Below, one piece after another: positions 26,861 through 51,638 of a DNA stretch of 64,000 nucleotides (position 1 is the stretch's first letter; the number at the start of each line of letters is the position of its first letter). The stretch comes from Chloroflexi bacterium ADurb.Bin180 (GTDB lineage Bacteria > Chloroflexota > Anaerolineae > UBA2200), in the NCBI GenBank assembly GCA_002070215.1, contig MWCV01000004.1:19407-83406 (forward strand), written 5' to 3'. Made by a program: the position numbers and the translations under genes. Below the pieces are notes generated by a model that was not told the origin of the DNA, did not search any database, and saw nothing but the letters and a program-made list of their open reading frames with translations.

Positions 26861-27022
26861 CTAGTCGACCGGCTCGAACATGTCCTTGCCAACACCGCAC
26901 TCGGGGCATACCCAGTCGGCTGGCAGGTCTTCGAAAGCGGTGCCGGGCTTGATACCGTGCTTCGGGTCTCCCTTGGCGGGGTCGTAGACATAGCCACAAA
27001 CGGTGCACTCGTACTTTTTCAT
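26861..27022 (-). CDS. rubredoxin (53 aa, absent from the ORF track)
   Basis: My own translation gives [53 protein letters not shown] with both CxxCG knuckles. GGAGGAG Shine-Dalgarno lies 7 nt upstream of the ATG. Confidence 0.9.
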
Positions 27023-27060
27023 CTCTTGTCTCCTCCTTGAATTCGGACATTCCCGCGGCT

Positions 27061-27089
27061 ATTATCACGGTACAGGGTCAAGTTGTCAA
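27061..27089 (-). promoter_or_regulatory. sigma70-type promoter of the rubredoxin-SOR operon
   Basis: On the minus strand: TTGACA (27089-27084), 17 nt spacer, GATAAT (27066-27061). The -35 box lies in the 3' end of the upstream ECF S-component gene. Confidence 0.5.
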
Positions 27090-29529: not shown

Positions 29530-30665
29530 GGCAGCCCTTGAGGCACTTGCTCCACGTGGTCGGGAGCAAGTCGGTTCGGCTGTCTGGTATCCCTTTGCCA
29601 CCACAGTATCGGGGCAGCGAGGAGACTGGTAGCCAGGCCTACCCATGGCGAGAACCCCGGCCAGGGATTGGAAGGTGGATAGGGGTAGTAGTACAGCAGT
29701 GATGGCGCGCGCCACTGAATCAGGCCCAGTGCGACCAGCGAGGCCAATGACAGCGCAGCCACGTAGGTGTCACCCGGGCACCATGCTTCAAAGCGGTAGT
29801 GAGAGCGCTGGAAGCCACGCCCCTGCACATAGAGCGCAGCCAGAAGTGCAATTGTGCCGCCAAAGAGCAGAATAGTAGTGACAGTGAGCGCCTGGCTAAC
29901 GATGGCCCGCATCAGGAGGCCGGTCAGCAGCGCAACAAGTCCCACGATGGTCAGGGGCGTGGCCAGAGAGCGGCTCGAGGCAGTCCTGCCGGCCTCTTTC
30001 GACTGCGGCGCGATCCCGCCAAAGCCACGTGCCTCCATCGACTCAGCCAGGGTGAGGGAGCGTTCGAGAGCCGTGGTGATCAAGGGAACGAACAGAGGGA
30101 TCCAATCGCGGAGGCCGCGGAACTGGTGTCCGCGCACCCGCTGAGCTTCGCGAATCTCCTGAAAGCTGGACATGAGTTGGGGGATGAAGGACAGCGCAAT
30201 GGAGACTACCAGGCCGGCCTGGAAGAGGCCCGACGGAAGCCACCGCAAGAGGCGATGCGAGTCCAGTGCCAGGTTGAACGTGGCAAACACCAGCAGCACA
30301 GCGAACAGGCTCGCACCATTGGACAACCCGTACAGCAGTGCCTCCAGTGTAATGGGCCCGCCGATAAGCGGCCAGTTGCGAGGCAGGGTGAAAAGGATCA
30401 CCCGGCCGGCGTGGGCAAAGAGCAGGTTGAAAATGGTGGCGACAGCCCATACCCACAGTCCCAAGCGCAGAAAAGTGCCCCAGCCAGCGGCAGTGTGTCT
30501 GCCGGCGCCGCTGCTTTCGCCGCCCGTGCTGGCCTTGCTGGCAATGGTAAAGACCGTTCCCACGGTGAGGATCAGCAGCACCGTCTGCAGCGGCTGACTG
30601 TTGACCAGTGCCGCAAAGGCCGCGGCACACAGCCATGCCAACCAGGTCAGCGTGTGGTAGGTCAT
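29526..30665 (-). CDS. ECF-transporter transmembrane (T) component, CbiQ/EcfT family, with N-terminal extension
   Basis: TALERSLTLAESMEARGF coupling-helix motif in a multi-TM protein. ATGA overlap with the upstream gene (30662-30665). Confidence 0.8.
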   Translation of the reverse strand: MTYHTLTWLAWLCAAAFAALVNSQPLQTVLLILTVGTVFTIASKASTGGESSGAGRHTAAGWGTFLRLGLWVWAVATIFNLLFAHAGRVILFTLPRNWPLIGGPITLEALLYGLSNGASLFAVLLVFATFNLALDSHRLLRWLPSGLFQAGLVVSIALSFIPQLMSSFQEIREAQRVRGHQFRGLRDWIPLFVPLITTALERSLTLAESMEARGFGGIAPQSKEAGRTASSRSLATPLTIVGLVALLTGLLMRAIVSQALTVTTILLFGGTIALLAALYVQGRGFQRSHYRFEAWCPGDTYVAALSLASLVALGLIQWRAPSLLYYYPYPPSNPWPGFSPWVGLATSLLAAPILWWQRDTRQPNRLAPDHVEQVPQGLP

Positions 30666-31303
30666 CGTGGTCCGCTTGTGGTTCGGCGCCTGGTCAGCCA
30701 GAAGCCACCCAACAGAGCGAGAGCCATACCGGCAAACAGCAGATACTGACCAATGGGCGGCGCATCCACCGTGTCAGTGGATGTTGAGGGTGCCGGTTCG
30801 GGGGTGGAATCGGGGGGACAGACCTCCGCAAAGCTGATTGTGTCCGGAGGCGTTTCGGCATTGCCCCACATCCAGGCCTCAACGGAGCCATCGACGACGC
30901 CATGATCCGCCGAGCCGATGGCCGAGTACATCCAGCGGTTGTCCTTCCAATACCAGTAGCTCCAATAGCTGCACGGGGGTCTCAGGCACTGGCAGAAGCA
31001 CGGTTCTGAGGGGTACTGACATCCGGTCTGCTCGATCCGACACACGGCGCCGCCCCATGTCACTACCTTGAGCCCGGAGCGCGCCAGTAGCTCGAGGCCG
31101 CTGATGCTGGTCTCGGAGAAGCTAATGCAGCGCGTGATCCTGGCTGCTGACGGGTCGACCTGGTCCCCAATGGGTGCAGTCTGGATCACCAGCGCTGCCC
31201 GGGAAGGACGCTGCGCGGAGAGGCTCGGGCCGGAGCCGGTGACAAGCAGCACCATCCCCGTCGCGAGTATCAACGCTATTGACAGGAAGCGGTAACGCAA
31301 CAT
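30662..31303 (-). CDS. DUF4430 (transcobalamin-like beta-domain) protein with signal peptide, Cys-rich insert and C-terminal TM anchor
   Basis: N-terminal hydrophobic signal. ...ISGLELLARSGLKV...WYWKDNRWMYSAIGSADHGVVDGSVEAWMWGN resembles the DUF4430 core. Six-Cys insert CRIEQTGCQYPSEPCFCQCLRPPC. C-terminal LLFAGMALALLGGFWLTRRR anchor. Confidence 0.6.
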   Translation of the reverse strand: MLRYRFLSIALILATGMVLLVTGSGPSLSAQRPSRAALVIQTAPIGDQVDPSAARITRCISFSETSISGLELLARSGLKVVTWGGAVCRIEQTGCQYPSEPCFCQCLRPPCSYWSYWYWKDNRWMYSAIGSADHGVVDGSVEAWMWGNAETPPDTISFAEVCPPDSTPEPAPSTSTDTVDAPPIGQYLLFAGMALALLGGFWLTRRRTTSGPR

Positions 31304-31358
31304 CGCAACACTCCGGCGCGGGGCCAGCGGCTGCGGTCGCTGGCCCCGGCGCAGTCAG

Positions 31359-32399
31359 CTACTTGGAACCCAGCGGCAGGAACTTGCCCTCAAGCGCTGG
31401 AATGGCCTGCACTGTGGCCATAACCGGGCTGCCAATTCCAGGCTGGAACTCGACCTTACCGTCGGCTGTCTGCAGCTTGAGCAGAGCAGTGAGCGGGTCG
31501 CCATCAGGCTTTTTCCACTTGCCGGCAGAGGGGTCTTCTCCCACAGCGTACAGGGCCATGAGCACATTAGCAGTGGAGTTGGCATTTGTGTCAGTGCCCC
31601 ACTCGGACGGTTTGATCGCTGGAAAGCCGCCATCGTCGTTCTGTTGGGTCTCAAAGAAGGCCAGAGCCTTCTGGATGGACGCTGCGTTCTTGGCTTCGCC
31701 GCCCGCTACGAGGGCCTGCAGCACGATGGCCACCGTATCGTTGTCTGGCCCAAAGGCAGAATCCCAGGCGCCAGAGTCCAGTTGGTAGCTCTCGAGAACG
31801 GCCACCGCCTCGGCCGGCACAGGTTCTCCCGCTGCCTTGAGCGCCAGGATGGCCCAGGCCTGACCGACCGCGCCTGCGTCGTACGTTCCCTTGGTCTGCG
31901 CCAAGGATTGGAGCACAGCCAGCCAATCCTTGCCGCCAAAGGTCCTGGGGTCCTGCTTGGCGGCGGCGATGGTCACGATCAGCTTGGCGGTGGTGGCGGC
32001 ATCCGTGGCGTACTCACCGGCGGACGTGGAGAGGTACTCGGTCAGAGAAGGCTGGCCTGCCTCCTTGCGCCACGATGAGGCGTCGCCGCCGCTGGCAACG
32101 ATGGCGAGGACTGCATCGCAGGTGACGCCGGCAGGGTGGCCAAAGCCGGTGTTCAGACTGCCATCGTCCTGTTGCTGTGAGCGCAGCCACTCCACTGCTT
32201 TGAGTGCTGGTGTCGCCGGCACCTCAGTAGGCGTGGGCGCCGGGGTGGGCGGAATCGCCGTCGGTGGCACCGCTGTTGGCGGTACCTTCGTGGGAGGCAC
32301 TGCGGTAGGGGTTGGCTTGGGTGCGCAGCCGGCGACCAGAGCGATCACCAGCAGAGCCAGGAGAAGCGGTGCTTGTTTGCGAATGAAGGTTCCGGACAT
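31359..32399 (-). CDS. lipoprotein with prenyltransferase/terpene-cyclase-type alpha/alpha-toroid repeats
   Basis: Signal peptide plus lipobox LVAGC and a Pro/Thr linker. Repeats WLRSQQQDDGSL, SYQLDSGAW, ETQQNDDGGF and LKLQTADGKV. First gene downstream of the cobalamin riboswitch. Confidence 0.6.
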   Translation of the reverse strand: MSGTFIRKQAPLLLALLVIALVAGCAPKPTPTAVPPTKVPPTAVPPTAIPPTPAPTPTEVPATPALKAVEWLRSQQQDDGSLNTGFGHPAGVTCDAVLAIVASGGDASSWRKEAGQPSLTEYLSTSAGEYATDAATTAKLIVTIAAAKQDPRTFGGKDWLAVLQSLAQTKGTYDAGAVGQAWAILALKAAGEPVPAEAVAVLESYQLDSGAWDSAFGPDNDTVAIVLQALVAGGEAKNAASIQKALAFFETQQNDDGGFPAIKPSEWGTDTNANSTANVLMALYAVGEDPSAGKWKKPDGDPLTALLKLQTADGKVEFQPGIGSPVMATVQAIPALEGKFLPLGSK

Positions 32400-32424
32400 T
32401 GCTCATCCTTTCGTTCGATGATGC

Positions 32425-32460
32425 GAAAATAAAAGACCCCGTGCCGGTTCGGCCGGGGTC
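32425..32460 (-). terminator. intrinsic terminator acting as the expression platform of the cobalamin riboswitch
   Basis: Minus-strand GACCCCGGCCGAACCGGCACGGGGTC followed by TTTTATTTTC. It lies between the aptamer and the ATG at 32399. Confidence 0.75.
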
Positions 32461-32521
32461 TATGCTGTGGAGCTTGAGTTCTCTCCCACCCCCTTTCTCG
32501 CGAAGGGTACTCTAGGAGCCG

Positions 32522-32641
32522 CGCAGAGGCGGGGTTTCTGGCTCCCTCGGCTGGGCCGAGGATACAGTTGCGGGACAGCGCCGGACTTGCCGGTCTTCCC
32601 CCTTTGATCGCCTGGCTTCCAAGCCTGCGGCGACCTCTGCG
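32522..32641 (-). promoter_or_regulatory. cobalamin (B12) riboswitch aptamer
   Basis: Minus-strand CGCAGAGG...AAAGGGGGAAGACCGGCAAGUCCGGCGCUGUCCCGCAACUGUA...GAGCCAGAAACCCCGCCUCUGCG. It contains the conserved AGGGAA and GCUGxxCCCGCAACUGUA core and a B12-box (AGCCAGxAxCCxxGCC). An 8-bp P1 closes the element (32634-32641 with 32522-32529). Confidence 0.85.
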
Positions 32642-32663
32642 ATGCCAATGTTCAGTTGGCTGA

Positions 32664-36174: not shown

Positions 36175-36546
36175 CTACGGCTCCACCTCGACCGTGTCTC
36201 CCACGCTCAGGCCGGTGCGCTTGATTTCTCCGGCCGGCAGCTCGACGACGTAGAGCGCACTGAACACCGGGCGGTCAATCCGGTTGGGCTTGAGGTTTTC
36301 AGTGACAGCAACGATGCGCCCAGACCGGCTGACATAGATGACGTCGATGGGGAAGGCCATGCCAAACATGTGGATCCAGCGGCAGGGTCGAATCATCAGC
36401 CCTTGACCGGGACGCAACGGAGCATGCCCAAGGAGGCCCCTGTTGCGCGACTCTCTGGTCTCGGCGAGTTCGAGCTCGCCCAGCACAACTCGCGTCGGCT
36501 CGGGCGGCCGGCCCGGCTCGTTACGGCGTCGCGAGAGCAGTCTCAT
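36175..36546 (-). CDS. DUF192-family protein
   Basis: RNRGLLGHAPLRPGQGLMIRPCRWIHMFGMAFPIDVIYV...YVVELPAG matches the DUF192 core. The start overlaps the cpaF stop (36543-36546). Confidence 0.7.
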   Translation of the reverse strand: MRLLSRRRNEPGRPPEPTRVVLGELELAETRESRNRGLLGHAPLRPGQGLMIRPCRWIHMFGMAFPIDVIYVSRSGRIVAVTENLKPNRIDRPVFSALYVVELPAGEIKRTGLSVGDTVEVEP

Positions 36547-37883
36547 TTGCGGAGCAGTGCCTCCAGGCCGACGCCAAAGATGTTGCCGGGCAGCTTGATT
36601 CCGGCGTGCTCGATCTTTTCGGCAAACTTGGGTCTGATGCCGGTGGGATTCAGCCGACCGAGGATCTTGCCGTCCTTTTGGCCGGTTTGTTCAAAGCGGA
36701 GGATGTCCTGCATCACGACCACTTCGCCTTCCATCCCCTGCACCTCGGCTACCTGAACGACGCGGCGGGAGCCATCGCTCATACGGTCGAGGTGAATGAT
36801 GCAGTCGATGGCCGAAGAGATCTGCTCACGGATGGCCCGCAGCGGCAGGTCCATACCGGACATCAGGACCATGGTCTCCAAACGGCGCAGCGCGTCGCGG
36901 GCGGTGTTGGCGTGGAGAGTGCTCAGGCTGCCATCGTGGCCGGTGTTCATAGCCTGCAGCATGTCGAGGGCCTCGCCGCCGCGGGCTTCGCCGACGACGA
37001 TGCGGTCGGGCCTCATACGGAGCGCGTTGATTACCAGGTCGCGGATCGTGATCTGCCCTTTGCCTTCGATGTTGGGTGGCCGTGCTTCAAGAGTGACCAC
37101 GTGTTCCTGCTTGAGCTGTAGTTCTGCCGCGTCTTCGATGGTGATGATGCGCTCCCGAGACGGAATGTACTGGGAGAGAACATTGAGCAGGGTGGTCTTG
37201 CCCGAACCAGTTCCGCCCGAGATGATCATGTTCAGCCGCGCTTCAACGGCGGCTCTAGTGAGCTGGATGAATTCGGGAGTGATGGTGCCAAAGGTCTGCA
37301 AGTCGTTGTCGGTGAAGGGAATGTGCGAGAACTTGCGGATGGTAACTACAGGTCCGACCAGCGAGATCGGTGGAATGGTTACGTTTACGCGAGAGCCATC
37401 CGGGAGGCGGGCATCAACCATCGGGGAAGACTCGTCGACGCGCCGACCCAGGGGAGCGACGATGCGGTCGATGATTCTCAGCAGGTGTTCCTCGTTCTCG
37501 AACACACAACTGGTCTTTTCAATCTTGCCGGCGCGTTCGATGTAAATCTTGCGCGGCCCATTGATCATGATCTCGGTGATGGTATTGTCCTGCAGGAGTG
37601 GTTCGATAGGACCAAACCCGAGGATTTCCGCCAGCACCTGCTCCAGGAGCAGCATCCGCTCCGTGCGGCTCATGGCCGCATTCTCTTCCTCGACGACTTT
37701 GGGGAACATCGCCTCAATGGTGCGGCGGACAATGGTTGGGTTGCTGATGTCGAGCTGCGGATCCAGCCGTGCCAGCACTTTTTCGCGGATGCGCGCACTC
37801 AGCCTGGCATCGTCTCGGGCTCCGGTACTGTCTGGTCGCGTGTGGCCGATGGCTTGCCCCGGGGGGCGGCTCGCAAGGGTCAT
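36543..37883 (-). CDS. cpaF: Tad/Flp pilus secretion ATPase CpaF/TadA
   Basis: ITEIMINGP, Walker A GGTGSGKTT, IITIEDAAEL, and RMRPDRIVVGEARGGEA. ATG 37883 overlaps the upstream stop (ATGA). Confidence 0.9.
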   Translation of the reverse strand: MTLASRPPGQAIGHTRPDSTGARDDARLSARIREKVLARLDPQLDISNPTIVRRTIEAMFPKVVEEENAAMSRTERMLLLEQVLAEILGFGPIEPLLQDNTITEIMINGPRKIYIERAGKIEKTSCVFENEEHLLRIIDRIVAPLGRRVDESSPMVDARLPDGSRVNVTIPPISLVGPVVTIRKFSHIPFTDNDLQTFGTITPEFIQLTRAAVEARLNMIISGGTGSGKTTLLNVLSQYIPSRERIITIEDAAELQLKQEHVVTLEARPPNIEGKGQITIRDLVINALRMRPDRIVVGEARGGEALDMLQAMNTGHDGSLSTLHANTARDALRRLETMVLMSGMDLPLRAIREQISSAIDCIIHLDRMSDGSRRVVQVAEVQGMEGEVVVMQDILRFEQTGQKDGKILGRLNPTGIRPKFAEKIEHAGIKLPGNIFGVGLEALLRK

Positions 37884-39535
37884 GGCACGACGCTCCAGTT
37901 CTCCAGGCCGCAATTGCACTTGCCAGCCAGGATAGTGACCGCCTGGTCATAGTGGCTGAGTGCGGACAGGTAATCACTTTGTGCTACCTTAAAGTCGCCC
38001 TGGCGGATGCTGTCCTCATACAGTTCCACGGGGATGGCCGTGGCGCTTCGGGTGATGATGTCCAATCCTGTCTTGATGAGCCCTGTGCCGGCGGCCAGAT
38101 TGCCTGCCTTGGCGGCGGCTGTTCCCTGCTTGACAAAGGCTGCAAACAGCAGTCGCGCCGTATCTTGGCCACCATGAACACCAACAAGGGCCGCCGAGCG
38201 GTAATGGGCCTCGGCTGTTGCCCAGTCCCCAACACTCGCGGCGTTGTCGCCATCGCGCATCAACTGGACGAACTGGCGCTGGAACTCGTTCTCTGGCTCG
38301 ACTGTTCCACCCGGGGTGATCTGCGTCGGGTGGGGCACGGGTTCAGATGGCTCCGGAGCCGGCGCAGGCGTGACGGCGGTAGGCAGCGGCGCAATGGAGG
38401 TTGGCAGCGGAGCAACCGGCGTCGGCGGGGGCGCAGGCGTGGACTCGGTCCCGTGCAGAAGGATGGCGGCACTTCCGCCGGCATAGTCGGGCTGCTTGTC
38501 CACCACATACTGCAGCAGCAGCACTGCCGCGGGTCTATTACCCAGGACAATCAGTCTCTGGGCCTCCAGGTACTTGTCAGCCAGAGATACCTGCAGCGAC
38601 ACCACCTCGTTCTGTGGCTGGAGCGAGAGAGCCTTCTGGAACAACGCCTTGGCTTCAACCAGGGCCTCCAGGCTGCCCTTGCTGCCCTCCACCAGCTCGA
38701 TGGCTTGCTTGTAGTAACCGTCGAACAGGTGCGCGCTGACCGTTGCCTTCTCATAATCGACGCTCAGGTCGATCAAGTCCTCGTAGGCGCGGCACGCCTC
38801 AGCCCACTTGCCTGTCTTGTAGGCTGCCTCAGCCCGCGCAAAGGCTGCACTCAGCGTCGCCTGCTGCTGGACATAGAGCAGTTTGACCTGCGCGTCGCCA
38901 TACCGCGGATCAACCGCAATCACTGATCGGAGAATCGTCTCAGCCCTGGCCCAGTCCTTAGCGATCACCGCTGCTTCGGCGCTGGCATAGTCGGCGTCGA
39001 GGGCCTTTCTTTGCTCGATCTGCTCGAGGGCCTGCGTCCAGGCCGTGTTGCCAGGATCGGCGGCGAGCAGTTCGTTAAAGGCCTCCTCAGCGTTGGCATA
39101 GTCGCGGTTGGCAAGGAGTTGGTAAGCACGTGTCACTTGCTGGGCCTTTTGTCGCTGCTCCTGTGTCTTGGTTTCGTCGGGACGAATCCACGTGTTGTAG
39201 GCGTAGCGGCCAGCGTAAGCAGCGCCCACCAGCAGTGCCAGGACGGCGAGCGCGAGGGCGATGTATTTCAGGCGCCCACCAAAGCGCACTCGCTTGGGTT
39301 TGGGCCGCGCCTCTTCCAGGGAGGCCTTGACGCGGGTTTCGTCCAGGAAGGCGCGGGCGGCAGCATGGTCAGGGCGCAGGCGCAGTACCTCTTCAAAGCT
39401 GGCCGCAGCCTGATCCCAGCGGCCATTCTGAAAATCGAGCAGACCTTGCTGGTACACCGTGTCGGCCTGCTGCTCCTGTGCTGTCGTATCGGGAACACTG
39501 TCAATGATTGGTTGTTCTTCCATGGCGGACCTCAT
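37880..39535 (-). CDS. single-pass membrane TPR-repeat protein of the Tad locus
   Basis: TPR-like helical repeats on both sides of a TM segment (YIALALAVLALLVGAAYA) and a Pro-rich linker. An alternative start is ATG 39523. Confidence 0.6.
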   Translation of the reverse strand: MRSAMEEQPIIDSVPDTTAQEQQADTVYQQGLLDFQNGRWDQAAASFEEVLRLRPDHAAARAFLDETRVKASLEEARPKPKRVRFGGRLKYIALALAVLALLVGAAYAGRYAYNTWIRPDETKTQEQRQKAQQVTRAYQLLANRDYANAEEAFNELLAADPGNTAWTQALEQIEQRKALDADYASAEAAVIAKDWARAETILRSVIAVDPRYGDAQVKLLYVQQQATLSAAFARAEAAYKTGKWAEACRAYEDLIDLSVDYEKATVSAHLFDGYYKQAIELVEGSKGSLEALVEAKALFQKALSLQPQNEVVSLQVSLADKYLEAQRLIVLGNRPAAVLLLQYVVDKQPDYAGGSAAILLHGTESTPAPPPTPVAPLPTSIAPLPTAVTPAPAPEPSEPVPHPTQITPGGTVEPENEFQRQFVQLMRDGDNAASVGDWATAEAHYRSAALVGVHGGQDTARLLFAAFVKQGTAAAKAGNLAAGTGLIKTGLDIITRSATAIPVELYEDSIRQGDFKVAQSDYLSALSHYDQAVTILAGKCNCGLENWSVVP

Positions 39536-39551
39536 TCTGTGCCGAGTCTGG

Positions 39552-40493
39552 CTACCTCAAGATGTCGGCAAAGCTACGAACCACGATGGGAATGGCCGGC
39601 CCGATGGAGACGGCCAAAAGTGCCGGAAAGATCATAAAGATGAGCGGAAACAGCATCTTGAGCGGTACCTTGCGGGCCTCTTCCTCTGCTCTCTGCCAGC
39701 GTTTGACGCGCATCTGCTCCGACTGGTTGTGAAGGACGCTGGCAATGCTCAGCCCGAACTGCTCGGCCTGCATCAGCACCGCGGTAAAGCTGCCCACTTC
39801 CTCGACATTGGTGCGCCAGGCCAGGTTCTGCAGGGCCTCGCGCCTGGTCAGCCCGATGCGCACCTCGGCCACGACTTTGCCGAACTCCATGGCGATGGCG
39901 TTCTTCCACTTCTCGCTGATTTTGAGCATGCCGGCGTCGAGGCCGGATCCGGCATCAACGCAGATGGTGAGCATGTCCAGGGCATCGGGCAGGCTGCGCC
40001 TGATTTCCCCCTTGCGTTTGCGGACGCGCGAGCCCAGCCAAAAGTCAGGCACAAGAAAGGCGATCCCGGCGCCAATGAGCGGGAAGGCGATCAAGCGGAG
40101 TGCGGCACCGCCGGCGATGGTCGCGAAATAGAATGTAGCCACTCCCACGACAAGCCCCAGCAGAAGCTTGACGCCGAGGAAATCCAACACGCCGAGGTTG
40201 AAGGGGTGCCCGGCCCTGACCAGGTCCGTTCGAATTCGCTCGATGTTGCGGGATGGAGCCAGACGGCCCGCGGCCTGCATCTGGTTGCGCAACCACGGCT
40301 TGAGCACGCGCTCGGCAAAGCTCTCTTCGAGTTCGGCGTCTTCGGTGGGATGAGGGCTTGCAGTGAGGCGTTCCAGTTGCTGTTTGGCAGTCTCGCTGTG
40401 GGTCAGCCGCCTCAAGCCAACCAGCAGCGAAACAACGCTCAGCATCGCCATAGTCGCAATGGACAGACCCAACGTCGTGGTGCTCATTGACAC
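39552..40493 (-). CDS. tadC: Flp pilus assembly platform protein TadC (T2SSF family)
   Basis: T2SSF-type layout: cytoplasmic helical domain (LPDALDMLTICVDAGSGLDAGM...) flanked by TM helices. Confidence 0.8.
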   Translation of the reverse strand: MSMSTTTLGLSIATMAMLSVVSLLVGLRRLTHSETAKQQLERLTASPHPTEDAELEESFAERVLKPWLRNQMQAAGRLAPSRNIERIRTDLVRAGHPFNLGVLDFLGVKLLLGLVVGVATFYFATIAGGAALRLIAFPLIGAGIAFLVPDFWLGSRVRKRKGEIRRSLPDALDMLTICVDAGSGLDAGMLKISEKWKNAIAMEFGKVVAEVRIGLTRREALQNLAWRTNVEEVGSFTAVLMQAEQFGLSIASVLHNQSEQMRVKRWQRAEEEARKVPLKMLFPLIFMIFPALLAVSIGPAIPIVVRSFADILR

Positions 40494-40500
40494 GCAGCTC

Positions 40501-41499
40501 CTAGAACTCGACCTTGCTTAGCTTGCCCATGACAAAGTAGCCGGCTATCTCCAGGATCACGGCGGTGATCGGAATCAGAAGCGTCCAGCCGGGCGTGAAA
40601 AGAGCGCTAAGGTAGTCGGGACTGATGATATGAATCATGACCGCAACAGCTGCCGGCAGAATGGTCAGGATGGTTCTTTGCAGGTTCTGTTGCGCCGTGA
40701 GCACGCGCAGCTGGCCCTTGAGCCGAATGCGTTCACGGATGGTGCCGCTGATCGTCTCCAGGATGATGGCCAGGTTGCCCCCGACTTCGTACTGGATGGC
40801 AATGGCGGTCACGACCAGGTCGAGGTCGTCGCTCTTGATGCGGCGGACCAGGTTCTGCAGCGCCTGAGTGGCCGACATGCCCAAACCGATCTCTCTCACC
40901 ACGCGCGCAAACTCCTCGCTGGCAGGCGGAGGCATCTGCTTGGCCACTGTGTCCATAGCGATAGTGATGCCATAGCCGCTGCGCAGCGAGCCGACCAGAA
41001 GCGTTAGAACGTCAGGCAACTGGTCCTGGAAAAGGAGGAGCCGTCTGGCTTCCCGATTGTGGAGATAGATGCGCGGCAGAAAGAGACCCAGAGCGCCGCC
41101 GAGCATGGCGAAAAGCAGTTGCCGCGTGAAGAGAAAGATCAAGAGGAATAGGCCAGCAGTGGTCGCCAGTTGGATAAGAACGAACTCGGGTACCGTGAGT
41201 GGCAGGTTGGCCCGGGCCAGGTCAGTGGCTATCGAGGCGGCAAAGCTGCGCCCCGAGACGAGCCGGGCCACGCCTTGCACCAGCGGTTCAAACCAACGGC
41301 CCTTGCGCTTGTCATCGGTAATCGCAAGAGGCTGTGCGTCCTGCAGGAGGTCCTCGAGGCGTGAGGCAACGGTGTCCTGTCGCTCGATGAGCCGGCCAAG
41401 GCCGACGAACATCAGGAGGACCGCCGCAACTATGCCAAGTGCGCTGAGGGCTACAAGCACACCCACCGTCAACCTCCCCAGACGGGCAGACGTGTCCAC
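40501..41499 (-). CDS. tadB: Flp pilus assembly platform protein TadB (T2SSF family)
   Basis: QLPDVLTLLVGSLRSGYGITIAMDTV... T2SSF domain. An alternative GTG start at 41466 lies 6 nt after GGGAGG. Confidence 0.8.
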   Translation of the reverse strand: MDTSARLGRLTVGVLVALSALGIVAAVLLMFVGLGRLIERQDTVASRLEDLLQDAQPLAITDDKRKGRWFEPLVQGVARLVSGRSFAASIATDLARANLPLTVPEFVLIQLATTAGLFLLIFLFTRQLLFAMLGGALGLFLPRIYLHNREARRLLLFQDQLPDVLTLLVGSLRSGYGITIAMDTVAKQMPPPASEEFARVVREIGLGMSATQALQNLVRRIKSDDLDLVVTAIAIQYEVGGNLAIILETISGTIRERIRLKGQLRVLTAQQNLQRTILTILPAAVAVMIHIISPDYLSALFTPGWTLLIPITAVILEIAGYFVMGKLSKVEF

Positions 41500-42143
41500 C
41501 CGGCGAGCTGCTGCCCAAAGAGCATCGTGCTCAGGCAGCCGGCCACCAGGTAAGGCGCATAGGGAATGTACTGCTTGGGTCCGCGGATGCGCGTGACGAG
41601 CAGCACTGCAGCAGCCAGACCGCCAAACAGGATTCCCAGCAGTAACGCCTGAAATACTGCCGGAAAGCCATTGATCGTCCCGATCAGAATCGCCAGCTTG
41701 ACATCACCGGGTCCGAGTGCGCCGCGCCCCGCGGCAGCGAGCAGTATGAACAGAGCCCCGGCCGAGAGAGCGCCAGTCAATGCCGAACGCGGGTCGGGCA
41801 GCACACGGAGAATGCTGAACAACAGAGACAGCACTATGCCGGTGGCTACCAGTACGTTGGGGACCAGGCGGTGTTCGAGGTCGATTGCGCCGATCAGTAG
41901 CAGCAGCTCGCTCAGCATGAACCGGGCCCAGAAAGTGGGGTCCCACGAGTGAACCCGGTACAGGTACACGGCAAAGGCAACTGAACCCGCGAGCAACAAC
42001 AGGGTTCGCCAGAACGGACGGGGGCGAGAAGAGACCACCGGGATACCGTCGCCATCTTCGTCGGCAATGCGGGCCGGCAGCCAGTCCGCGACCCAGTTGG
42101 TGAGCCAGGCACCGGCGAGGCCCAGGAGCAGCGCAGCCCACAT
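41469..42143 (-). CDS. A24-family prepilin peptidase (TadV/CpaA-like)
   Basis: Polytopic protein with GAIDLEHRLVPN and GPGDVKLAILIG aspartyl-protease motifs. ATG 42143 starts 4 nt after the cpaE stop. Confidence 0.8.
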   Translation of the reverse strand: MWAALLLGLAGAWLTNWVADWLPARIADEDGDGIPVVSSRPRPFWRTLLLLAGSVAFAVYLYRVHSWDPTFWARFMLSELLLLIGAIDLEHRLVPNVLVATGIVLSLLFSILRVLPDPRSALTGALSAGALFILLAAAGRGALGPGDVKLAILIGTINGFPAVFQALLLGILFGGLAAAVLLVTRIRGPKQYIPYAPYLVAGCLSTMLFGQQLAGWTRLPVWGG

Positions 42144-42147
42144 GTGG

Positions 42148-43368
42148 CTAGCTCCCAGCCTGACCACGCCCCAGGAGTGCGCTGGCCATGGCCGGGGCGG
42201 GGCGCTTTTTGGAGGCTCTGTTGAGAACCAGATCCGCAAGCTGAACGACACTCTGAGCAACGGCGCTCTTGGGATGGCTAATGACCACAGGAATGCCACG
42301 GTTGACGGAATAGGTCATCAGGGGCTCGTCATTGGGTATGGTCACATCGACACTCGTCTGGAGGGCCGCCTCGACATCGCGGAGCTGCAGTCCACCCTTG
42401 GTAGGGTAACGATTCAGCACGACCAGAGGCTTGGTGTCCCGCATCCAGGAGGCAGCCGACTGAAGGAACAGGTGGGCATTGCGCAGCGAGGTCATCTCCG
42501 GGGTAAGGATGAGAACGGTCTCGGACAGTTGTAGTATTGCCATCGTACTGGCATCCATGGAAGTGGCGGTGTCAAGGACGAGAAAGTCACACGCTTCCTG
42601 CAGCCAGCCGATGATGCGCTGCCATTGTTCTGGCGCTACATGTGAAACGTCCTGTGCCCACGGGTAGGAGGCTAGCACACGGATGTCGGATGAATGAGCA
42701 GTAAGCACCGACCCGAGAAGCTCCATATCGAGTTGGTCCAGCCGAGGCAGCAGGTCGCCCACGGTATGCTGCGGGGCCAGATTGAGCATTACGGCGAGAG
42801 TCCCGCCCAGCGTCGAAGAGTCGACAACGGTTACTCTCCTGGCGCTCTTGGAGCGAAGGGCAACCGCCAGGTTGACCGCCAGAGCAGTAGTCCCCACTCC
42901 GCCCTTGGCACCCCACAGGGCCACAATGTGCGCCAGAGTCTTTTCCTCGCTGCGCAACGCTGCCTTCACCCGGGCTACCAGCTCTGCCGGGGCCACGGGC
43001 TTGATGATAAAGTCGTCGGCTCCAGCCTTGAAGCCGGCTACCTTATCGGTCACGTCAGTGCGGCTGGAGTAGAGCAGGATCGGAGTCTTGGCCGTCGACG
43101 GCACTGCTCTGAGCGTGCGACAAACCTCATAGCCATCCACATCGGGCAGGTCAGTGTCCAACAGGACTAGTTTGGGGCGATTGAGTTCCGCCAGTACCAC
43201 TCCGGCCTGGCCGGTAATGGCGGTGAGGACCTCCAGGCCCTCGGCGCGGAGAACGCGCTGGATGTTCTCAGCGACGTCGACGTCGTGATCGATAACGAGA
43301 ATGGTCGTTGACACTGACTGCCCCTTATGGTTCGACTGGAATGCGGATGCGGTACCGGTCGATGACAT
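42148..43368 (-). CDS. cpaE: CpaE/TadZ-like pilus localisation ATPase (REC domain + MinD/ParA-type ATPase)
   Basis: ILVIDHDVDV...LVLLDTDLPDVDG receiver and deviant Walker A GAKGGVGTTALAVNLA. An alternative GTG start at 43314 lies 6 nt after AAGGGG. Confidence 0.8.
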   Translation of the reverse strand: MSSTGTASAFQSNHKGQSVSTTILVIDHDVDVAENIQRVLRAEGLEVLTAITGQAGVVLAELNRPKLVLLDTDLPDVDGYEVCRTLRAVPSTAKTPILLYSSRTDVTDKVAGFKAGADDFIIKPVAPAELVARVKAALRSEEKTLAHIVALWGAKGGVGTTALAVNLAVALRSKSARRVTVVDSSTLGGTLAVMLNLAPQHTVGDLLPRLDQLDMELLGSVLTAHSSDIRVLASYPWAQDVSHVAPEQWQRIIGWLQEACDFLVLDTATSMDASTMAILQLSETVLILTPEMTSLRNAHLFLQSAASWMRDTKPLVVLNRYPTKGGLQLRDVEAALQTSVDVTIPNDEPLMTYSVNRGIPVVISHPKSAVAQSVVQLADLVLNRASKKRPAPAMASALLGRGQAGS

Positions 43369-44104
43369 AGTTGATGTTCACCGACTGCGTCTCAGAGATC
43401 TCGGTGGCCTCCGGCGCCCGCAGCACGATGTCGACGCCGCCGCCGATGTCCTTGAGGTGCTTGAGGATCAGAGCATCCTGGGGATCGAGGGCAAAGACGA
43501 TGGCCAATGGCCCCACACCGTGACTTCCAACTCGAGCGGATGCCTCCACGCCCAGGTCAGAGGAGTGGATCACCGCCGCGATCTCGAGATTCTGCAAAGC
43601 GTTGAAGGTAACCGTTCCTCCCCGGCCCTCACCCTGCGTCTCCACGTTGATGGAGAACAGCAAGTCGACGTGGTCGCCTGGCTGGAGCATGTCGACCTGA
43701 CTCATCAAGTCGCCGGCGGGGAAAGCCATGGCGACCTTGGTCTTGTCCATCAAGAAGGCCACGTGCTCGCCTTTCATCGTCGGCGAGACGATGTTGGTAG
43801 TCAGGATCATCTCGTCGGGAGCCAGCGGCACCATGGTCAACAGCCCCACCACCTGATCCAGGCTGCGCGCGGCGCTTTCGGGAACGATGTCGGCCGGTGC
43901 CTTGCGCAGCTCTACATCAGCGGCCTGGATGAGGCCGCGGACACCCAGAGCGCGGGTCGAAACCACAACATCTACGGTCGGCGCCTCGGGTGCGACTGGC
44001 TTGGCCAGCAATGCCCTTTGGATCGCGACATAAGCCAGCAAGCCAGCCAGGAGCGCGATGACAGCTCCCGCTGCTATCCAGATGCATCCAGATCTTTTTC
44101 TCAT
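43325..44104 (-). CDS. cpaB: Flp pilus assembly protein CpaB/RcpC (SAF domain)
   Basis: N-terminal TM anchor, then VDVVVSTRALGVRGLIQAADVELRKAP (SAF-like). GGAGGAG Shine-Dalgarno is upstream. Confidence 0.75.
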   Translation of the reverse strand: MRKRSGCIWIAAGAVIALLAGLLAYVAIQRALLAKPVAPEAPTVDVVVSTRALGVRGLIQAADVELRKAPADIVPESAARSLDQVVGLLTMVPLAPDEMILTTNIVSPTMKGEHVAFLMDKTKVAMAFPAGDLMSQVDMLQPGDHVDLLFSINVETQGEGRGGTVTFNALQNLEIAAVIHSSDLGVEASARVGSHGVGPLAIVFALDPQDALILKHLKDIGGGVDIVLRAPEATEISETQSVNINYVIDRYRIRIPVEP

Positions 44105-44615
44105 CTAGGGCCATCTCCTCCGGCCTCGATGGCGCCCGACCGGACTGGTGGGCCCGGTCAGTTGCTCGGCAGCAGCCGTGCTCGGCGCCTGTTGGCCTGC
44201 CGGTTACGAGTCCTGCGCATCATACACGAATTTGTGGAATTGAGCCTATCTGTACTAGCTGGATCTCGACCGCTCCGCCGCTGTCACCACTCGGCCGCGG
44301 CTCCGGGCGGAGCAAATTAAGCCCGCATAGAGCCAGCCACTGGCCTTGGCCGTCATGCAGCCCCTGCGCGGGACACGTGCGCTGTCGTCATTCGAGATGA
44401 CGTGAGGGGTATTGAATAGATACGGGAAGTCAACAGTGGCACTTGCCGTGAGACTGGCTCGCCGGCCGGGCGAAAGCAGCAAGAGCGATGCCCTCAATGG
44501 CCGGAACCGGCAAGCTCAAGTGGAAGGCCAACCCACAGGCCATCAGCGAAGCTCCTGCCTGCCCCGAGTTTTCGGCGCACTTTGCGACACCAGGTTCGCT
44601 GGGTGGTTCGGTGGG

Positions 44616-46259
44616 TCAATTGCCCCCCAGCAGGTAGACCTGGCAGCCGTCCCAGGAAGCGACCAGCGGCAAGCGAATGGAGGCTAAATCGGCAGTGAAC
44701 TCGGCCGGCAGGCCCTGTGGGCGGTCGCCCCAGACAATGAGCAACTCGGCGCCAAAGCGTCGAGCTGCCGTTTGGGCGGTAGCCAGACCGCCAAAGGGGA
44801 TGGCCAACGTCCGGCGCTCGGCAAACAGCGAGATGCCCAGGCCGTTATTGGTCAAAATGATGGTCTGTGGGTCGGTGTTAGCCTTGACCCATTCCGCTAC
44901 CCTGGCGTTGCTCTGCGCAAGGCGTCGATTGCTGACGATCTCCGTTCTGGCCACGGTCACGCCTATCAAACAGGCCACCAACACCGCCCCCACCTGAAAG
45001 ACCCTCAAAGAACGGCGCGGATCCAATACCCCGGCTACCCTGGCCAATCGCTGCCAACTGCAGCGCAGGCCGACGGCGGCAAGTGCAGCCCCAAAGGGCA
45101 CCCAGGCCGAGAGAGAGTGACTGAACCCCCCTTGCAGACCAGGAAAAACGTAGACCAGAGACATCGCCAGGAAGAGCAGCAAGGGGTACAGGAGTACGGG
45201 GAACAGGCTGGGAGGCGCACCCCCCTCGGCAACGGGCCTATCGCGCGGTGAGCTGGCTCGAGGGCGGGTCATGGCAAGCGCACCGAGCGCGATGAACGGC
45301 GCCTGCCAGAACTGGAAGGTCCAGATCAGTCGCAGGCCGTTCATTCCCAGCGCGTTCAGGCGTGCCTGAAGCAGCGACGACCAACCCGCGGAGAGCAGAT
45401 GCTGCAGGGTGAATTGCGGCTCAAAGGCAAAGAACTCGCCGTACTCCCTGAGCAGTGCCGGGTACAGGGGCGGCACCGGGTTCACGCGGCCGAAAGTAAG
45501 CCAGTTGCGCAGCCACCAGGGGGCGCAGACGCCTACAAACAAGCCCAGAGTCAGCAGCACCACCCGGAAGGAGACACCCTGCCCACGGTGCCGCAGCCAG
45601 AGCACAAAGAGCCCGAAGACAGCCAGGAGGAGAATGGCATCATTTCGCGTGAGGGCGGCCAGGCCCATAAACAGGCCGGAGGCCGCGAGCCAATATGGGT
45701 TGCTCCAGTCGCGAGACATCGCGTAGATAGCCAGACCGGCGGTCAACGCGAAGGTGGCGTAGCAGTCAACATCCAACTGGGTTGCCATCACCGTTCCGCC
45801 ACCGAAAAGGACCAGCCCTGCAGCCACGAGTCCATCCGACACACGCCCCGTGAGCCGACGCGTGAACAGGTAGGCGAGCAAGACGAGAGCGGAGGAAAGC
45901 AGAATCTGCGGAATCTGCGCTGCCCGATAGCTCCGCGAGAGCAGCAGAAAGAGAGCCTGGAGCAGAGAAGGCAGTGGGAGCCAGACCCCGCCGGCCGGAT
46001 GAGGAAAGCCGACTGGCCGATCGAGGAACTGCCACAGCGCGTCGACCACCAGACCGCGGCCCGCGACGAGGTTCTTGGCGACCAGGTAGTAGTACTGGGC
46101 ATCGAAACTGGACGGCGCAGCCAACTGCAGTGCGGTCGCGGTGCGAACGCCCACCGCAATGAGGTAGAGCAGGGGGAGCAGCCAGTGATCCGCGTTCGAA
46201 CGGTTCCGTGCTGGTGGCGAGGTCATATCAGCAGCCGTTGCGCCTGGCTGGTCTGTCAC
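44616..46259 (-). CDS. GT-C fold glycosyltransferase, family 39 / ArnT-PMT-like
   Basis: About 12 TM helices, N-terminal loop ...FDAQYYYLVAKNLVAGRGL..., and a soluble C-terminal domain. This is the typical dolichyl/undecaprenyl-phosphate-sugar transferase layout. Confidence 0.65.
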   Translation of the reverse strand: MTDQPGATAADMTSPPARNRSNADHWLLPLLYLIAVGVRTATALQLAAPSSFDAQYYYLVAKNLVAGRGLVVDALWQFLDRPVGFPHPAGGVWLPLPSLLQALFLLLSRSYRAAQIPQILLSSALVLLAYLFTRRLTGRVSDGLVAAGLVLFGGGTVMATQLDVDCYATFALTAGLAIYAMSRDWSNPYWLAASGLFMGLAALTRNDAILLLAVFGLFVLWLRHRGQGVSFRVVLLTLGLFVGVCAPWWLRNWLTFGRVNPVPPLYPALLREYGEFFAFEPQFTLQHLLSAGWSSLLQARLNALGMNGLRLIWTFQFWQAPFIALGALAMTRPRASSPRDRPVAEGGAPPSLFPVLLYPLLLFLAMSLVYVFPGLQGGFSHSLSAWVPFGAALAAVGLRCSWQRLARVAGVLDPRRSLRVFQVGAVLVACLIGVTVARTEIVSNRRLAQSNARVAEWVKANTDPQTIILTNNGLGISLFAERRTLAIPFGGLATAQTAARRFGAELLIVWGDRPQGLPAEFTADLASIRLPLVASWDGCQVYLLGGN

Positions 46260-46656
46260 TGCGCGGTTGTTGTCGACGTGCAGGCTGGTTCATCGTTGTC
46301 AGCAATCAACAGTCTGGCTGCGGCACGGAGGTCGGCTGAGCGCTCGTGTGGCACCGTGCTGCGGGATTGCCTGGTCGCCCCGGATCCAGACGATATGGGC
46401 ACCATTCCGCCCCTGGCGGAGGCGAGCAGGTTGGTGACCCTGGCCAGGCAACTTCTGGAACATTGTAACAGGGGCCTCTGGCTCCGAGGCGCCCTGTCGC
46501 GCATTCTCGGTAATCGTATTGTTCAAGGGCAGCACGCGACCCGGAGCGACTGGAAGAAATGAGCAAAGGCCAGGCAGGCGAGGCGGCACGCGTGACAGGG
46601 TCTGGCTGCTCTCCGGGTCTGGCCCAGCAAGACCCGGGCGCGGATCGCGCTATCGG

Positions 46657-46705
46657 CAAGAGAAACGACGAGGGGCAGAGCACTCTTGACCGTGTGCCCT
46701 GCCCC
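46657..46705 (-). terminator. stem-loop / attenuator directly after the flp pilin gene
   Basis: Minus-strand GGGGCAGGGCAC...GTGCTCTGCCCC (7+4 bp with one mismatch) followed by TCGTCGTTTCTCTTG. Confidence 0.5.
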
Positions 46706-46732
46706 TGTGTCGTCTGTCCCTCCATCAAGGCT

Positions 46733-46906
46733 CTAGGTGACAGCCTTGCCCAGTGCGGTGGCGATTTTATCCAGGATCTGCTGAATGCTCGAGCCCATAG
46801 TCTGGAGGGCGACAATGGCGAGCAGCACAATCAGACCAATGATCAGAGCGTATTCGGTCAGGTCCTGACCTTTCTGCCGGCGTAACCACTGCATCAGCTT
46901 TTTCAT
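46733..46906 (-). CDS. flp: Flp-family type IVb pilin (57 aa precursor)
   Basis: MKKLMQWLRRQKG|QDLTEYALIIGLIVLLAIVAL... has G at -1 and E at +5/Y at +6, an exact fit to the Flp motif. AAGGAGG Shine-Dalgarno is upstream. The ORF-track entry 46733..47137 is an upstream extension. Confidence 0.85.
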   Translation of the reverse strand: MKKLMQWLRRQKGQDLTEYALIIGLIVLLAIVALQTMGSSIQQILDKIATALGKAVT

Positions 46907-47444
46907 TTCTTGTTCACCTCCTTTCCCGTACAGTGTGCCCAGGCCACCGACGAGTCGATGTGGTTGCGCTGGGGATACCGTTCTGGTGAGAGCGAGTGCT
47001 CTCCCGCGAGAGAACTCGTGTGCTCTGCCCACAACGGTGTGAAACCCGTCTGTCTGTAACGCTATTGCTACCTTTCGTCTACCCCGTGGACACAATCCTA
47101 GCATACAAAGATGAATAGAGTGTGAACAGATCGGCACCGCAACATAGCAATTCGTTCATATTCACACCGTGCCATCCACTGATTCGCGTTTGCCTCGGCA
47201 AAGGTAGGCCTGGATTGTTAACGACTATTCATGTACCGTCTGCCCGAATCGCGAAGGGGCAGGGGCCTGGCTGCACACAACAGCTCAGCACCATTAGCAC
47301 CAACCCTGATGACGGAGTTGGATGCGAATAGATACTGTCTCCTGTAGCGCAGGTAGCTTGCTCTTTCACGCGCGCTGTGATAGACTCTGACCAGGTAGTT
47401 GCCGGGCGCACATTGTACAGCAAACGACCGGAAGAGGGGGAACG

Positions 47445-49892: not shown

Positions 49893-49921
49893 ATTGTAGC
49901 ATGCCTCACCGTGATGCGCAA
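49893..49921 (-). promoter_or_regulatory. sigma70-type promoter of the Na/Pi cotransporter gene
   Basis: Minus strand: TTGCGC (49921-49916), 17 nt spacer, TACAAT (49898-49893). Confidence 0.5.
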
Positions 49922-49941
49922 CCGTGGGCGGTTTCGGGGGT

Positions 49942-49969
49942 TTGTGCTAGTGCCGACACCCCCTATAAT
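49942..49969 (+). promoter_or_regulatory. sigma70-type promoter of the GNAT-like gene / bcp unit
   Basis: TTGTGC (49942-49947), 16 nt spacer, perfect TATAAT (49964-49969). ATG is at 50001. Confidence 0.5.
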
Positions 49970-50000
49970 GGCGGTCACAGTCCGAAACAGAGGCAAGCAG

Positions 50001-51137
50001 ATGGCATATCTCAAGATCATCCAGGTGGCTGACGAGCGAGAGCGGAGGGACATGGTCCTCTTCCCATGGACCGTGTACCGTGGTGACAAGAACTGGGTGC
50101 CTCCGCTGCGCAAAGAGCGCGACAAGATGCTGGATCCCAAGCGTAACGGCTTCTTTCAGCGATCAGATGTGGTGCTGTTCTTAGCCAGACGCGGCGAGCA
50201 GACGGTAGGCACCATCGCCGCCTTTGTCGACCGGCGATTCAATGAGACCCTGGGAAAGAAAGTGGGCTTTTTCGGCTTCTTTGAGGTGCTGCAGGACTAT
50301 GAAGCAGCGGAAGGCCTGTTGAGCAGTGCGCGGGAGTGGTTGCGCGCACGAGGAATGACCGAGTTTCGCGGCCCGATCAACTTTCATCGCGACCGCGAGA
50401 GGGGGATTCTGGTCGAGGGCGCCGATTGTCCCCCGCCAATGCTGTGCGCCCATTCTCCACCATACTATCACGAGTTCGTGACTCGCTTTGGCCTGACCAA
50501 GCAGTCGGACGATTTCTGCCGTCGACTGCTCGTTTCCAGCGTTGTCGGCCCTCATGGTGAGCTGCCCGACAGGCTGGCCAGGCTGGAAAAAGTCGCCCAG
50601 CGCCGCTCCCACTTTGCTATTCGGCAGGCGCGCAAAGAGGATTGGGACGCCGAGCTCCAGAGAGTGCGCGAGCTCTACGACGCTACGATCGGCCAACTGC
50701 CAGACCACATACCGTGGACGGACGAGGAGATCAACGCCTTTGCCGAGGAGCTCAAGCCGATCGTGGATCCGTCTTTTGCCCTGTTCGGCGAGGTTGATGG
50801 CAAGACCGTAGGCTGCGTACTTGCTTTTCCGGATATGAATCAGGTGCTCATCCACCTGGATGGCCGCCTGGACGTGGCCCACAAGCTGCTGGCCTGGTGG
50901 TACATGAAGCGCATCAACATACTTAGCTTCAAGGTTGGCGGTGTGCTGGACGAGTACCAGGGCAGAGGCATCGAGGCGCTGATGCTGCTGGCTCTGGCCA
51001 AGGCGGCGGTGCCGCGCGGCTATCGCTGGGTGGACATGTCGCTGCAGGCGGAAGACAACGACAAGCTGACCACTCTGGTCACGCACTTTAACGCCGAAAC
51101 CTACAAGAGGTATCGGATCTACACTATGCCGGCCTAG
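50001..51137 (+). CDS. conserved two-lobed GNAT-like (N-acyltransferase superfamily) protein
   Basis: 378 aa. FPWTVYRGDKNWVPPL...FFGFFEV...GPINF... and the C-terminal VGGVLDEYQGRGIEALM acetyl-CoA-loop-like segment. Family recognised from memory only. Confidence 0.45.
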   Translation: MAYLKIIQVADERERRDMVLFPWTVYRGDKNWVPPLRKERDKMLDPKRNGFFQRSDVVLFLARRGEQTVGTIAAFVDRRFNETLGKKVGFFGFFEVLQDYEAAEGLLSSAREWLRARGMTEFRGPINFHRDRERGILVEGADCPPPMLCAHSPPYYHEFVTRFGLTKQSDDFCRRLLVSSVVGPHGELPDRLARLEKVAQRRSHFAIRQARKEDWDAELQRVRELYDATIGQLPDHIPWTDEEINAFAEELKPIVDPSFALFGEVDGKTVGCVLAFPDMNQVLIHLDGRLDVAHKLLAWWYMKRINILSFKVGGVLDEYQGRGIEALMLLALAKAAVPRGYRWVDMSLQAEDNDKLTTLVTHFNAETYKRYRIYTMPA

Positions 51138-51170
51138 CCGGGACGAATCAACAGGCCTCAGGAGGGTGCA

Positions 51171-51638
51171 ATGCTCAAGGCGGGCGACCGTGCGCCGGAT
51201 TTCGCTCTGGTCTCGGACAAGGGAGACAAAGTCAAGCTATCTGGCCTGAAGGGAAAGAAAGTGATCCTGTACTTCTTCCCCAAGGCGGGGACCTCAGGCT
51301 GAACGGTTCAGGCCAACGGATTCCGTGACGAATCCGAGAGAATTGCAGCGGCGAACGCGGTGGTTGTCGGCATCAGTCCCGACCCGAGCGAGGCTCTGGC
51401 CGATTTCCGTGCAAAAAACAACCTGCCCTTTGTGCTGCTTTCCGATCCCAAGCACGTTGTGGCCGAAAAGTACGGTGCCTGGGGCGAGAAGAAGATGTAC
51501 GGCAAGAGCCACATGGGAGTGATTCGCAGCCACTTTGTCATCGACGAGAACGGGCGCTTGCTCGACGTCCGCATCAAGGTGGGTCCTGACGAAAGCGTCA
51601 GACTCGCCGTGGAGAAAGTGACGGCTCCCGCGGGCTAG
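51171..51638 (+). CDS. bcp: Bcp/PrxQ-type peroxiredoxin with in-frame TGA (putative selenocysteine) at the peroxidatic position
   Basis: ATG 51171 lies 4 nt after GGAGGG. MLKAGDRAPDF...VILYFFPKAGTSG-[TGA 51300-51302]-TVQANGFRDE...GISPD...LLSDP...HFVIDENGRL. Both halves are in one frame and together span a full-length Bcp. Confidence 0.7.
51317..51336 (+). promoter_or_regulatory. SECIS-like hairpin downstream of the in-frame UGA
   Basis: Perfect 7-bp stem CGGAUUC / GAAUCCG with loop CGUGAC. The stem starts 14 nt after the UGA, and the loop contains GU. Confidence 0.45.

Follow-up and report, generated by a model that had tools for sequence, protein, structure and literature searches.

Peroxiredoxins of the Bcp/PrxQ type that carry selenocysteine (Sec) have been known since about 2004, and gene callers still split the genes that encode them. 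The Sec-peroxiredoxin (Sec-Prx) family with a TxxU motif (PF00578, COG1225) was already listed among the previously known families by Zhang et al. 2005, whose Sargasso Sea survey counted 43 such genes and ranked the family second in abundance among selenoproteins (PMC1088965); the GOS data contain 253 (PMC2398784), and a survey of 5,200 genomes reported 91 in 78 organisms (PMC5029168). For the peroxiredoxins, five independent conversions of Cys to Sec were inferred in 2006 (PMC1794560), and the family is also covered in a review (PMC13188914). Among Sec-peroxiredoxins, PrxU of Eubacterium acidaminophilum has been characterised biochemically (Sohling et al. 2001, as quoted in PMC13188914).

The gene described here lies in a stretch of 64,000 nucleotides (the window) from a metagenome-assembled genome (MAG) of the Anaerolineae (Chloroflexota), of a kind found in wastewater-type metagenomes, and it is a new, unannotated member of the known Sec-Prx family, not a new kind of selenoprotein. 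As in the TxxU family, an AhpC-TSA domain is combined with a predicted Sec at the peroxidatic position of PxxxTxxU and with a putative SECIS hairpin directly downstream within the ORF, and Cys homologues are widespread. Nothing essential sets the window copy apart; the clade to which it belongs is, however, devoid of the resolving Cys and of any Cys overall. The first-pass annotation of the window, made from the letters alone, had proposed a Sec-containing peroxiredoxin here and had noted that such proteins occur in other bacteria, in agreement with the three surveys cited above. The features of the locus are as follows:

49911–51137, plus strand: upstream ORF with no assigned function, separated by a 33-nt gap from the predicted Sec-Bcp gene
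51161–51166, plus strand: Shine-Dalgarno-like GGAGGG, read directly from the sequence, 4 nt 5' of ATG 51171
51171–51638, plus strand: predicted Sec-Bcp/PrxQ coding sequence, 155 codons (43 aa, Sec44 and 111 aa), then TAG
51300–51302, plus strand: UGA codon, predicted Sec, the peroxidatic residue in the motif P37-K-A-G-T41-S-G-U44
51317–51336, plus strand: candidate SECIS hairpin, with 5' arm CGGAUUC (51317–51323), loop CGUGAC (51324–51329) and 3' arm GAAUCCG (51330–51336)

The interrupted frame and its protein family

The frame reads MLKAGDRAPDFALVSDKGDKVKLSGLKGKKVILYFFPKAGTSG up to the TGA at 51300–51302 and then runs through 111 sense codons to the TAG at 51636–51638; all these coordinates, together with the GGAGGG and the ATG at 51171, had been given in the first-pass annotation and were verified on the sequence. 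It had also been anticipated that standard gene callers would miss the gene. In fact, they split the locus into pieces of 43 and 92 aa, and the ORF lister reported only the same two pieces, 51171–51302 (43 aa) and 51360–51638 (92 aa). As detailed below, the comparative evidence strongly supports the reading of 51171–51638 as a real selenoprotein gene of an Anaerolineae bacterium, in which the catalytic Cys would be replaced by a UGA-encoded Sec; the annotation should join the locus into a single 155-residue selenoprotein, neither two fragments nor a pseudogene.

When the TGA was read as Cys, the protein matched the Pfam AhpC-TSA domain (PF00578) at 2.3e-35, with 121.7 bits against a cutoff of 26, as well as the Pfam Redoxin domain. 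The NCBIfam Bcp equivalog NF006960 was passed with 151.3 bits against a cutoff of 140 (U read as C), which bears out the earlier assignment to Bcp/PrxQ and agrees with COG1225, the Bcp-type peroxiredoxin group. The scores remained far below the cutoffs of the PrxU model NF040737 (34.0 bits vs. 270) and of the Prx-SUH model NF045827 (25.4 bits vs. 298). PrxU is likewise a peroxiredoxin with an active-site Sec, but it belongs to another Prx subfamily, being about 230 residues long and AhpC-like, not Bcp-like.

In a multiple alignment with 17 homologues, Cys-type forms included, the TGA falls on the Cys of PKxxTxGC, and P37, K38, T41, G43, T45 and R52 are invariant. The HMMER alignment to the solved Bcp/PrxQ structures 5enu and 2ywn also places the TGA on the peroxidatic Cys, as had been claimed at first sight of the sequence, with the window motif facing PKDNTPGCT of PDB 5enu. 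The PxxxTxxU residues P37, T41 and U44 and the conserved catalytic Arg (R52) are all present. Many Cys-type Bcp proteins are 57–64% identical to the window protein, which has the same length as the E. coli-type Bcp and the plant PrxQ (NF006960) and shares with them the PKxxTxG-C/U-T motif and the conserved Arg. It differs from them in the predicted Sec at the peroxidatic position and in the resolving Cys of QAC, which is Asn in the window protein; therefore, the intramolecular disulfide cycle of the atypical 2-Cys Bcp would be impossible. In this atypical 2-Cys subgroup the resolving Cys lies five residues past the peroxidatic residue, where we found Asn49, and the whole protein contains zero Cys residues. 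Judged by its sequence, the protein belongs to the 1-Cys-type, here presumably 1-Sec, subgroup of Bcp/PrxQ, as had been deduced from QAN in place of QAC. Membership in the Prx-like thiol:disulfide oxidoreductase selenoproteins with a UxxC or UxxU motif was considered and rejected, the stretch T-S-G-U-T-V-Q-A having no Cys or Sec three residues past the U.

The product of the ORF at 51171–51638 is very probably a Bcp/PrxQ-type, thioredoxin-dependent thiol peroxidase with a peroxidatic Sec, with the hairpin as its SECIS element and a 1-Sec mode of action. By analogy with the known route of Sec insertion in bacteria, a ribosome reaching UGA44 would find a bacterial SECIS in the hairpin 14 nt further on; this would recruit SelB-GTP-Sec-tRNA(Sec), and Sec would be inserted with no termination. 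Peroxiredoxin chemistry predicts that the selenolate would then reduce the peroxide and become a selenenic acid. Since the protein has neither a resolving Cys nor any other Cys, an external reductant would be needed, and in the 1-Sec mechanism the selenenic acid would be recycled directly by an external thiol, most likely thioredoxin.

The hairpin downstream of the UGA

In the published model, the bacterial SECIS has a loop of 3–9 nt on a stem of 4–16 bp, lies 16–37 nt from the UGA, folds with an MFE of −7.5 kcal/mol or lower, and carries near the start of the loop a G with a G or U directly after it (PMC13188914). The hairpin of the window, pointed out in the first-pass annotation for its SECIS-like geometry, is a perfect 7-bp stem with a 6-nt loop, the stem starting 14 nt and the loop 21 nt past the UGA; isolated, it folds at −8.2 kcal/mol. 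It thus falls within all four published constraints, and a G and then a U occupy loop positions 2–3. There is no primary-sequence similarity to the SECIS of E. coli fdhF, and a search of Rfam with permissive thresholds over 51200–51450 gave no family match. The local fold of the window, compared with shuffled sequences, gave z = −1.55, which is unremarkable by itself, and the significance of the hairpin comes from the comparative data, not from the local folding energy.

For the comparison, the 63 nt from the UGA were folded in all the Sec loci listed (112 unique sequences), and 120 Cys-type loci with the same protein pattern and TGY in place of TGA (108 unique sequences) served as control. 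A hairpin recurs at one register in the listed Sec loci, with the loop on the Arg-Asp codons CG[U/G]GA[C/U]; in the window, the loop consists of the codons of Arg52 and Asp53, and the 3' arm of those of Glu54 and Ser55. The arms vary from clade to clade and yet remain complementary (GGAUUC/GAAUCC, GGGAAUC/GAUUUCC, GGGAGUC/GACUUCC, GCGGUGC/GCACUGC, GCGAUG/CAUCGC). Of the 112 Sec forms listed, 20–21 have a helix of 5 bp or more in register around the R-D codons, against 0 of the 108 Cys forms; helices of at least 6 bp in the adjacent register, shifted by one, added a further 18 listed Sec forms, against 0 Cys forms. A simple ungapped bSECIS filter was passed by 36/112 listed Sec forms and by 7/108 Cys forms (Fisher p = 1e-6). 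The mean folding z over all loci was −0.75 for the listed Sec forms and 0.00 for the Cys forms, and the in-register helix counts are a far better discriminator than this generic folding energy.

In the 24 sequences sharing the register of the window, 97% of the cells pair and compensatory double changes occur in 3 of the 7 pairs, the column pair 22/33 being U-A, G-C, A-U or C-G; when the partner was slid by 1–3 columns, pairing fell to 27–58%. These sequences had been selected for in-register pairing, and their numbers lean towards structure, so that the unselected contrast between Sec and Cys forms is the fairer test. RNAalifold independently predicts the same helix.

The arrangement also touches the protein. 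Compared with the general bacterial SECIS model, the loop in this family is fixed on conserved Arg-Asp codons. The Arg codon of the loop is CGU or CGG in 89 of the 112 Sec forms listed, CGC being the commonest in the Cys forms, and this bias fits the demand of the model for a G followed by G or U (PMC13188914). Where the 5' arm varies from one Sec clade to another, the residues at the 3'-arm positions (54–55) vary with it; therefore, RNA pairing appears to shape the protein at these positions. The putative SECIS loop covers the Arg-Asp codons, and the two codons that follow make up the 3' arm, so that the pairing would constrain both the Arg codon (CGU/CGG) and Glu54-Ser55.

The Sec forms of Verrucomicrobiales and Marinimicrobia (e.g., L026, L042, L015 and L024) are without an R-D-centred helix, and their only obvious hairpin has a GUU loop, 13–29 nt past the UGA. 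The GUU-loop hairpin, which lies on G-F or S-L codons, was examined as a SECIS candidate and rejected, being about equally common in Cys and Sec forms.

The same sets of loci were compared for the resolving Cys. A Cys at +5 is present in 41 of the 112 Sec forms listed vs. 99 of the 108 Cys forms, and 41 of 110 listed Sec forms (37%) have no Cys at all vs. 3 of 100 Cys forms lacking a second Cys; the Sec set (L003–L122) and the Cys set (L123–L242) come from different collections and the counts ignore phylogeny, and therefore the loss of the resolving Cys is to be taken as a lead, not as a finding. It is possible, though we would not put it at even chances, that the exchange of Cys for Sec in Bcp is systematically coupled to the loss of the resolving Cys; the outcome would be peroxiredoxins that are obligate 1-Sec enzymes and in many cases free of Cys, like those of the Anaerolineae clade of the window, with the SECIS loop pinned to the Arg-Asp codons and the pairing dictating the two residues past RD. 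In the Sec-Prx literature examined, we found no statement of such a coupling or of the pinned loop.

Conservation of the TGA and competing explanations

Among 5.8 billion database proteins, the homologue search brought up Cys-type Bcp proteins in their thousands, 57–64% identical to the window protein, and the two best matches (69% and 67% identity) showed a W at the catalytic position. In the DNA of these two nearest homologues (L001 and L002), the same catalytic codon is a TGA. In the JGI calls in question (P0001 and P0002, at L001:398-862 and L002:348-800), which lie on short contigs, this codon is rendered as W, as genetic code 4 would have it; the W is a gene-calling artefact of such contigs, and it makes selenoproteins look like full-length proteins with a W. 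We also scanned DNA from one genome per bacterial species for the pattern [FY]-P-K-x-x-T-x-G-TGA-T-x-[QH]-A, for which about 2 chance matches are expected, as estimated by hand from the information content of the pattern. At least 120 loci were found in these species-representative genomes. Among the matches listed, nearly all give a Bcp-like frame some 150 aa long; seven frames are cut by the contig end, and two end early. The listed loci belong to Acidimicrobiia, Chloroflexota, Verrucomicrobiales, Desulfobacterota, Marinimicrobia, Poribacteria, Planctomycetota and others, and include the isolates Desulfacinum infernum and Clostridium malenominatum. The two early-ending frames (L075 and L116, both deltaproteobacterial) stop 89 and 51 residues past the UGA and may be decayed copies or assembly frameshifts.

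Closer to the window, the contig JAKJAH010000003.1 (MAG GCA_022707605.1) is 100% identical to it over 16.5 kb. A sister strain, 98.7–98.9% identical overall, shows 14–15 substitutions (~3%) in the predicted Sec-Bcp gene, with no indel and no new stop; in five independent ENA assemblies of it, the TGA is retained and the hairpin is unchanged. Compared with its six closest Sec forms (60–70% identity), the window gene shows an identity of 0.56–0.74 before the UGA vs. 0.59–0.72 after it, and all six are Cys-free.

These data bear directly on the possibility that a Cys-type bcp was inactivated by a nonsense mutation. Such a pseudogene would require a single base change, from TGC or TGT to TGA, the locus is called as two fragments, and the two early-ending frames show that copies among the at least 120 related loci can end early past the TGA; we nevertheless judge this reading very improbable. 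Downstream decay in close relatives sharing the stop, which had been named as the sign to look for, was sought, and the downstream sequence proved intact and as well conserved as the upstream part in relatives at only 60–70% identity. More than 100 species, from many phyla, have the same TGA, the sister strain shows substitutions only, and the codon is followed by a covarying hairpin that is specific to the TGA forms. More improbable still, to a degree that makes it negligible, is an error of sequencing or assembly, or a sense TGA under code 4 or 25. The W printed in the JGI calls speaks for code 4, but a W at the peroxidatic position would mean a dead enzyme. TGA terminates 25 of the 55 rough gene calls in the window, whose G+C is 62%; it is therefore an ordinary stop here, and codes 4 and 25 are excluded. 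As for an error in the TGA itself, raised in the first-pass annotation, the codon is seen in six assemblies beyond the window itself, and the independent assemblies all show TGA. Sequencing error and recent pseudogenisation are thus both excluded by the same TGA in the relatives, the conserved part past the UGA and the assemblies of the sister strain.

The only rival fitting all the sequence evidence is SelB-dependent Cys recoding of the selC* type. In this case, UGA44 would be recoded to Cys by a SelC*-type tRNA-Cys(UCA) with a SelB-like factor; near-cognate read-through to Cys or to another standard amino acid is a related possibility, and we regard recoding of either sort as improbable, though less so than a pseudogene. 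SelB-dependent recoding of Sec codons to Cys by selC* tRNA-Cys has already been described (PMC5389517); it uses the identical signals, a UGA and a SECIS, and the evidence from sequence fits a Cys at this position as well as a Sec. Moreover, no selA, selB, selC or selD was found in the 64-kb window or in about 14 kb of flanks. Against this rival, the reports of selC* concern Firmicutes, Thermodesulfobacteria, Nitrospirae and Proteobacteria but no Chloroflexi, and a full Sec apparatus accompanied it in every case (PMC5389517). In addition, the resolving Cys is largely gone in the Sec forms, which would not obviously be expected if the residue were simply Cys. Insertion of Sec at UGA44 is hence the reading that we retain.

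Genomic context and predicted Sec decoding in the host

The ORF at 49911–51137, for which no Pfam or NCBIfam match was obtained, is probably co-transcribed with the predicted Sec-Bcp gene; no promoter-like site was found in the 33-nt gap between them. The order of a NaPi transporter, this ORF and the Sec-Bcp gene is kept in L113, the nearest genome locus (Anaerolineales), where the counterpart of the ORF (L113:5954-7081) is 68% identical; because of this identity and synteny, the ORF may be a functional partner of the Sec-Bcp protein. On the 3' side, in convergent orientation, lie mltG/yceG, ruvX, an unassigned gene, alaS, clpX, clpP and tig. Across the 253 loci of the whole comparison, ARAGORN detected no tRNA-Sec, and motif scans for SelD, SelA and SelB signatures gave no match.

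Elsewhere in the window, a cobalamin riboswitch at 32511–32653 (49 bits) heads a minus-strand operon (27000–32653) encoding a 346-aa protein with a weak terpene-cyclase-like match, a 213-aa unassigned protein, CbiQ, a duplicated ABC ATPase and an ECF S-component. This operon probably encodes a B12-regulated ECF transporter for cobalt or corrinoids. A Tad/Flp-type pilus locus occupies 36500–47140 on the minus strand, with a T2SSE ATPase, a TPR protein, at least one T2SSF protein and an RcpC/CpaB-like protein; the ORF at 46733–47137 ends, on the C-terminal side, in a short Flp-like pilin. Other TGA-interrupted frames in the window were sought by their GC3, but the scan was too noisy at 62% G+C and missed the true case; a candidate frame at 46523 on the minus strand was rejected as Arg-rich non-coding sequence.

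NuoE/NuoF-like pairs often accompany an NAD-linked formate dehydrogenase or hydrogenase. NuoE-like and NuoF-like genes (2Fe-2S_thioredx and Complex1_51K) are present on JAKJAH010000003.1 (L251:1-1611), some 9 kb before the window begins, and the region beyond them could hold a second selenoprotein gene (FdhA).

For the family, the window gene adds little to the field, because Sec-Prx already ranks with the most abundant selenoprotein families of bacteria; modest refinements come from the R-D register of the SECIS, from the bias of the Arg codon and from the resolving Cys, which is frequently lost. For the organism, Sec decoding is suggested by the gene itself, and Chloroflexi are known to include Sec users (PMC1794560; PMC5389517), with a tRNA-Sec of the 8/4 acceptor/T-arm form reported from this phylum (PMC5389517). 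If UGA44 is indeed read as Sec, this wastewater-type Anaerolineae lineage would decode Sec, and selA, selB, selC and selD, probably with more selenoproteins such as FdhA or SelD, would be predicted elsewhere in its genome.
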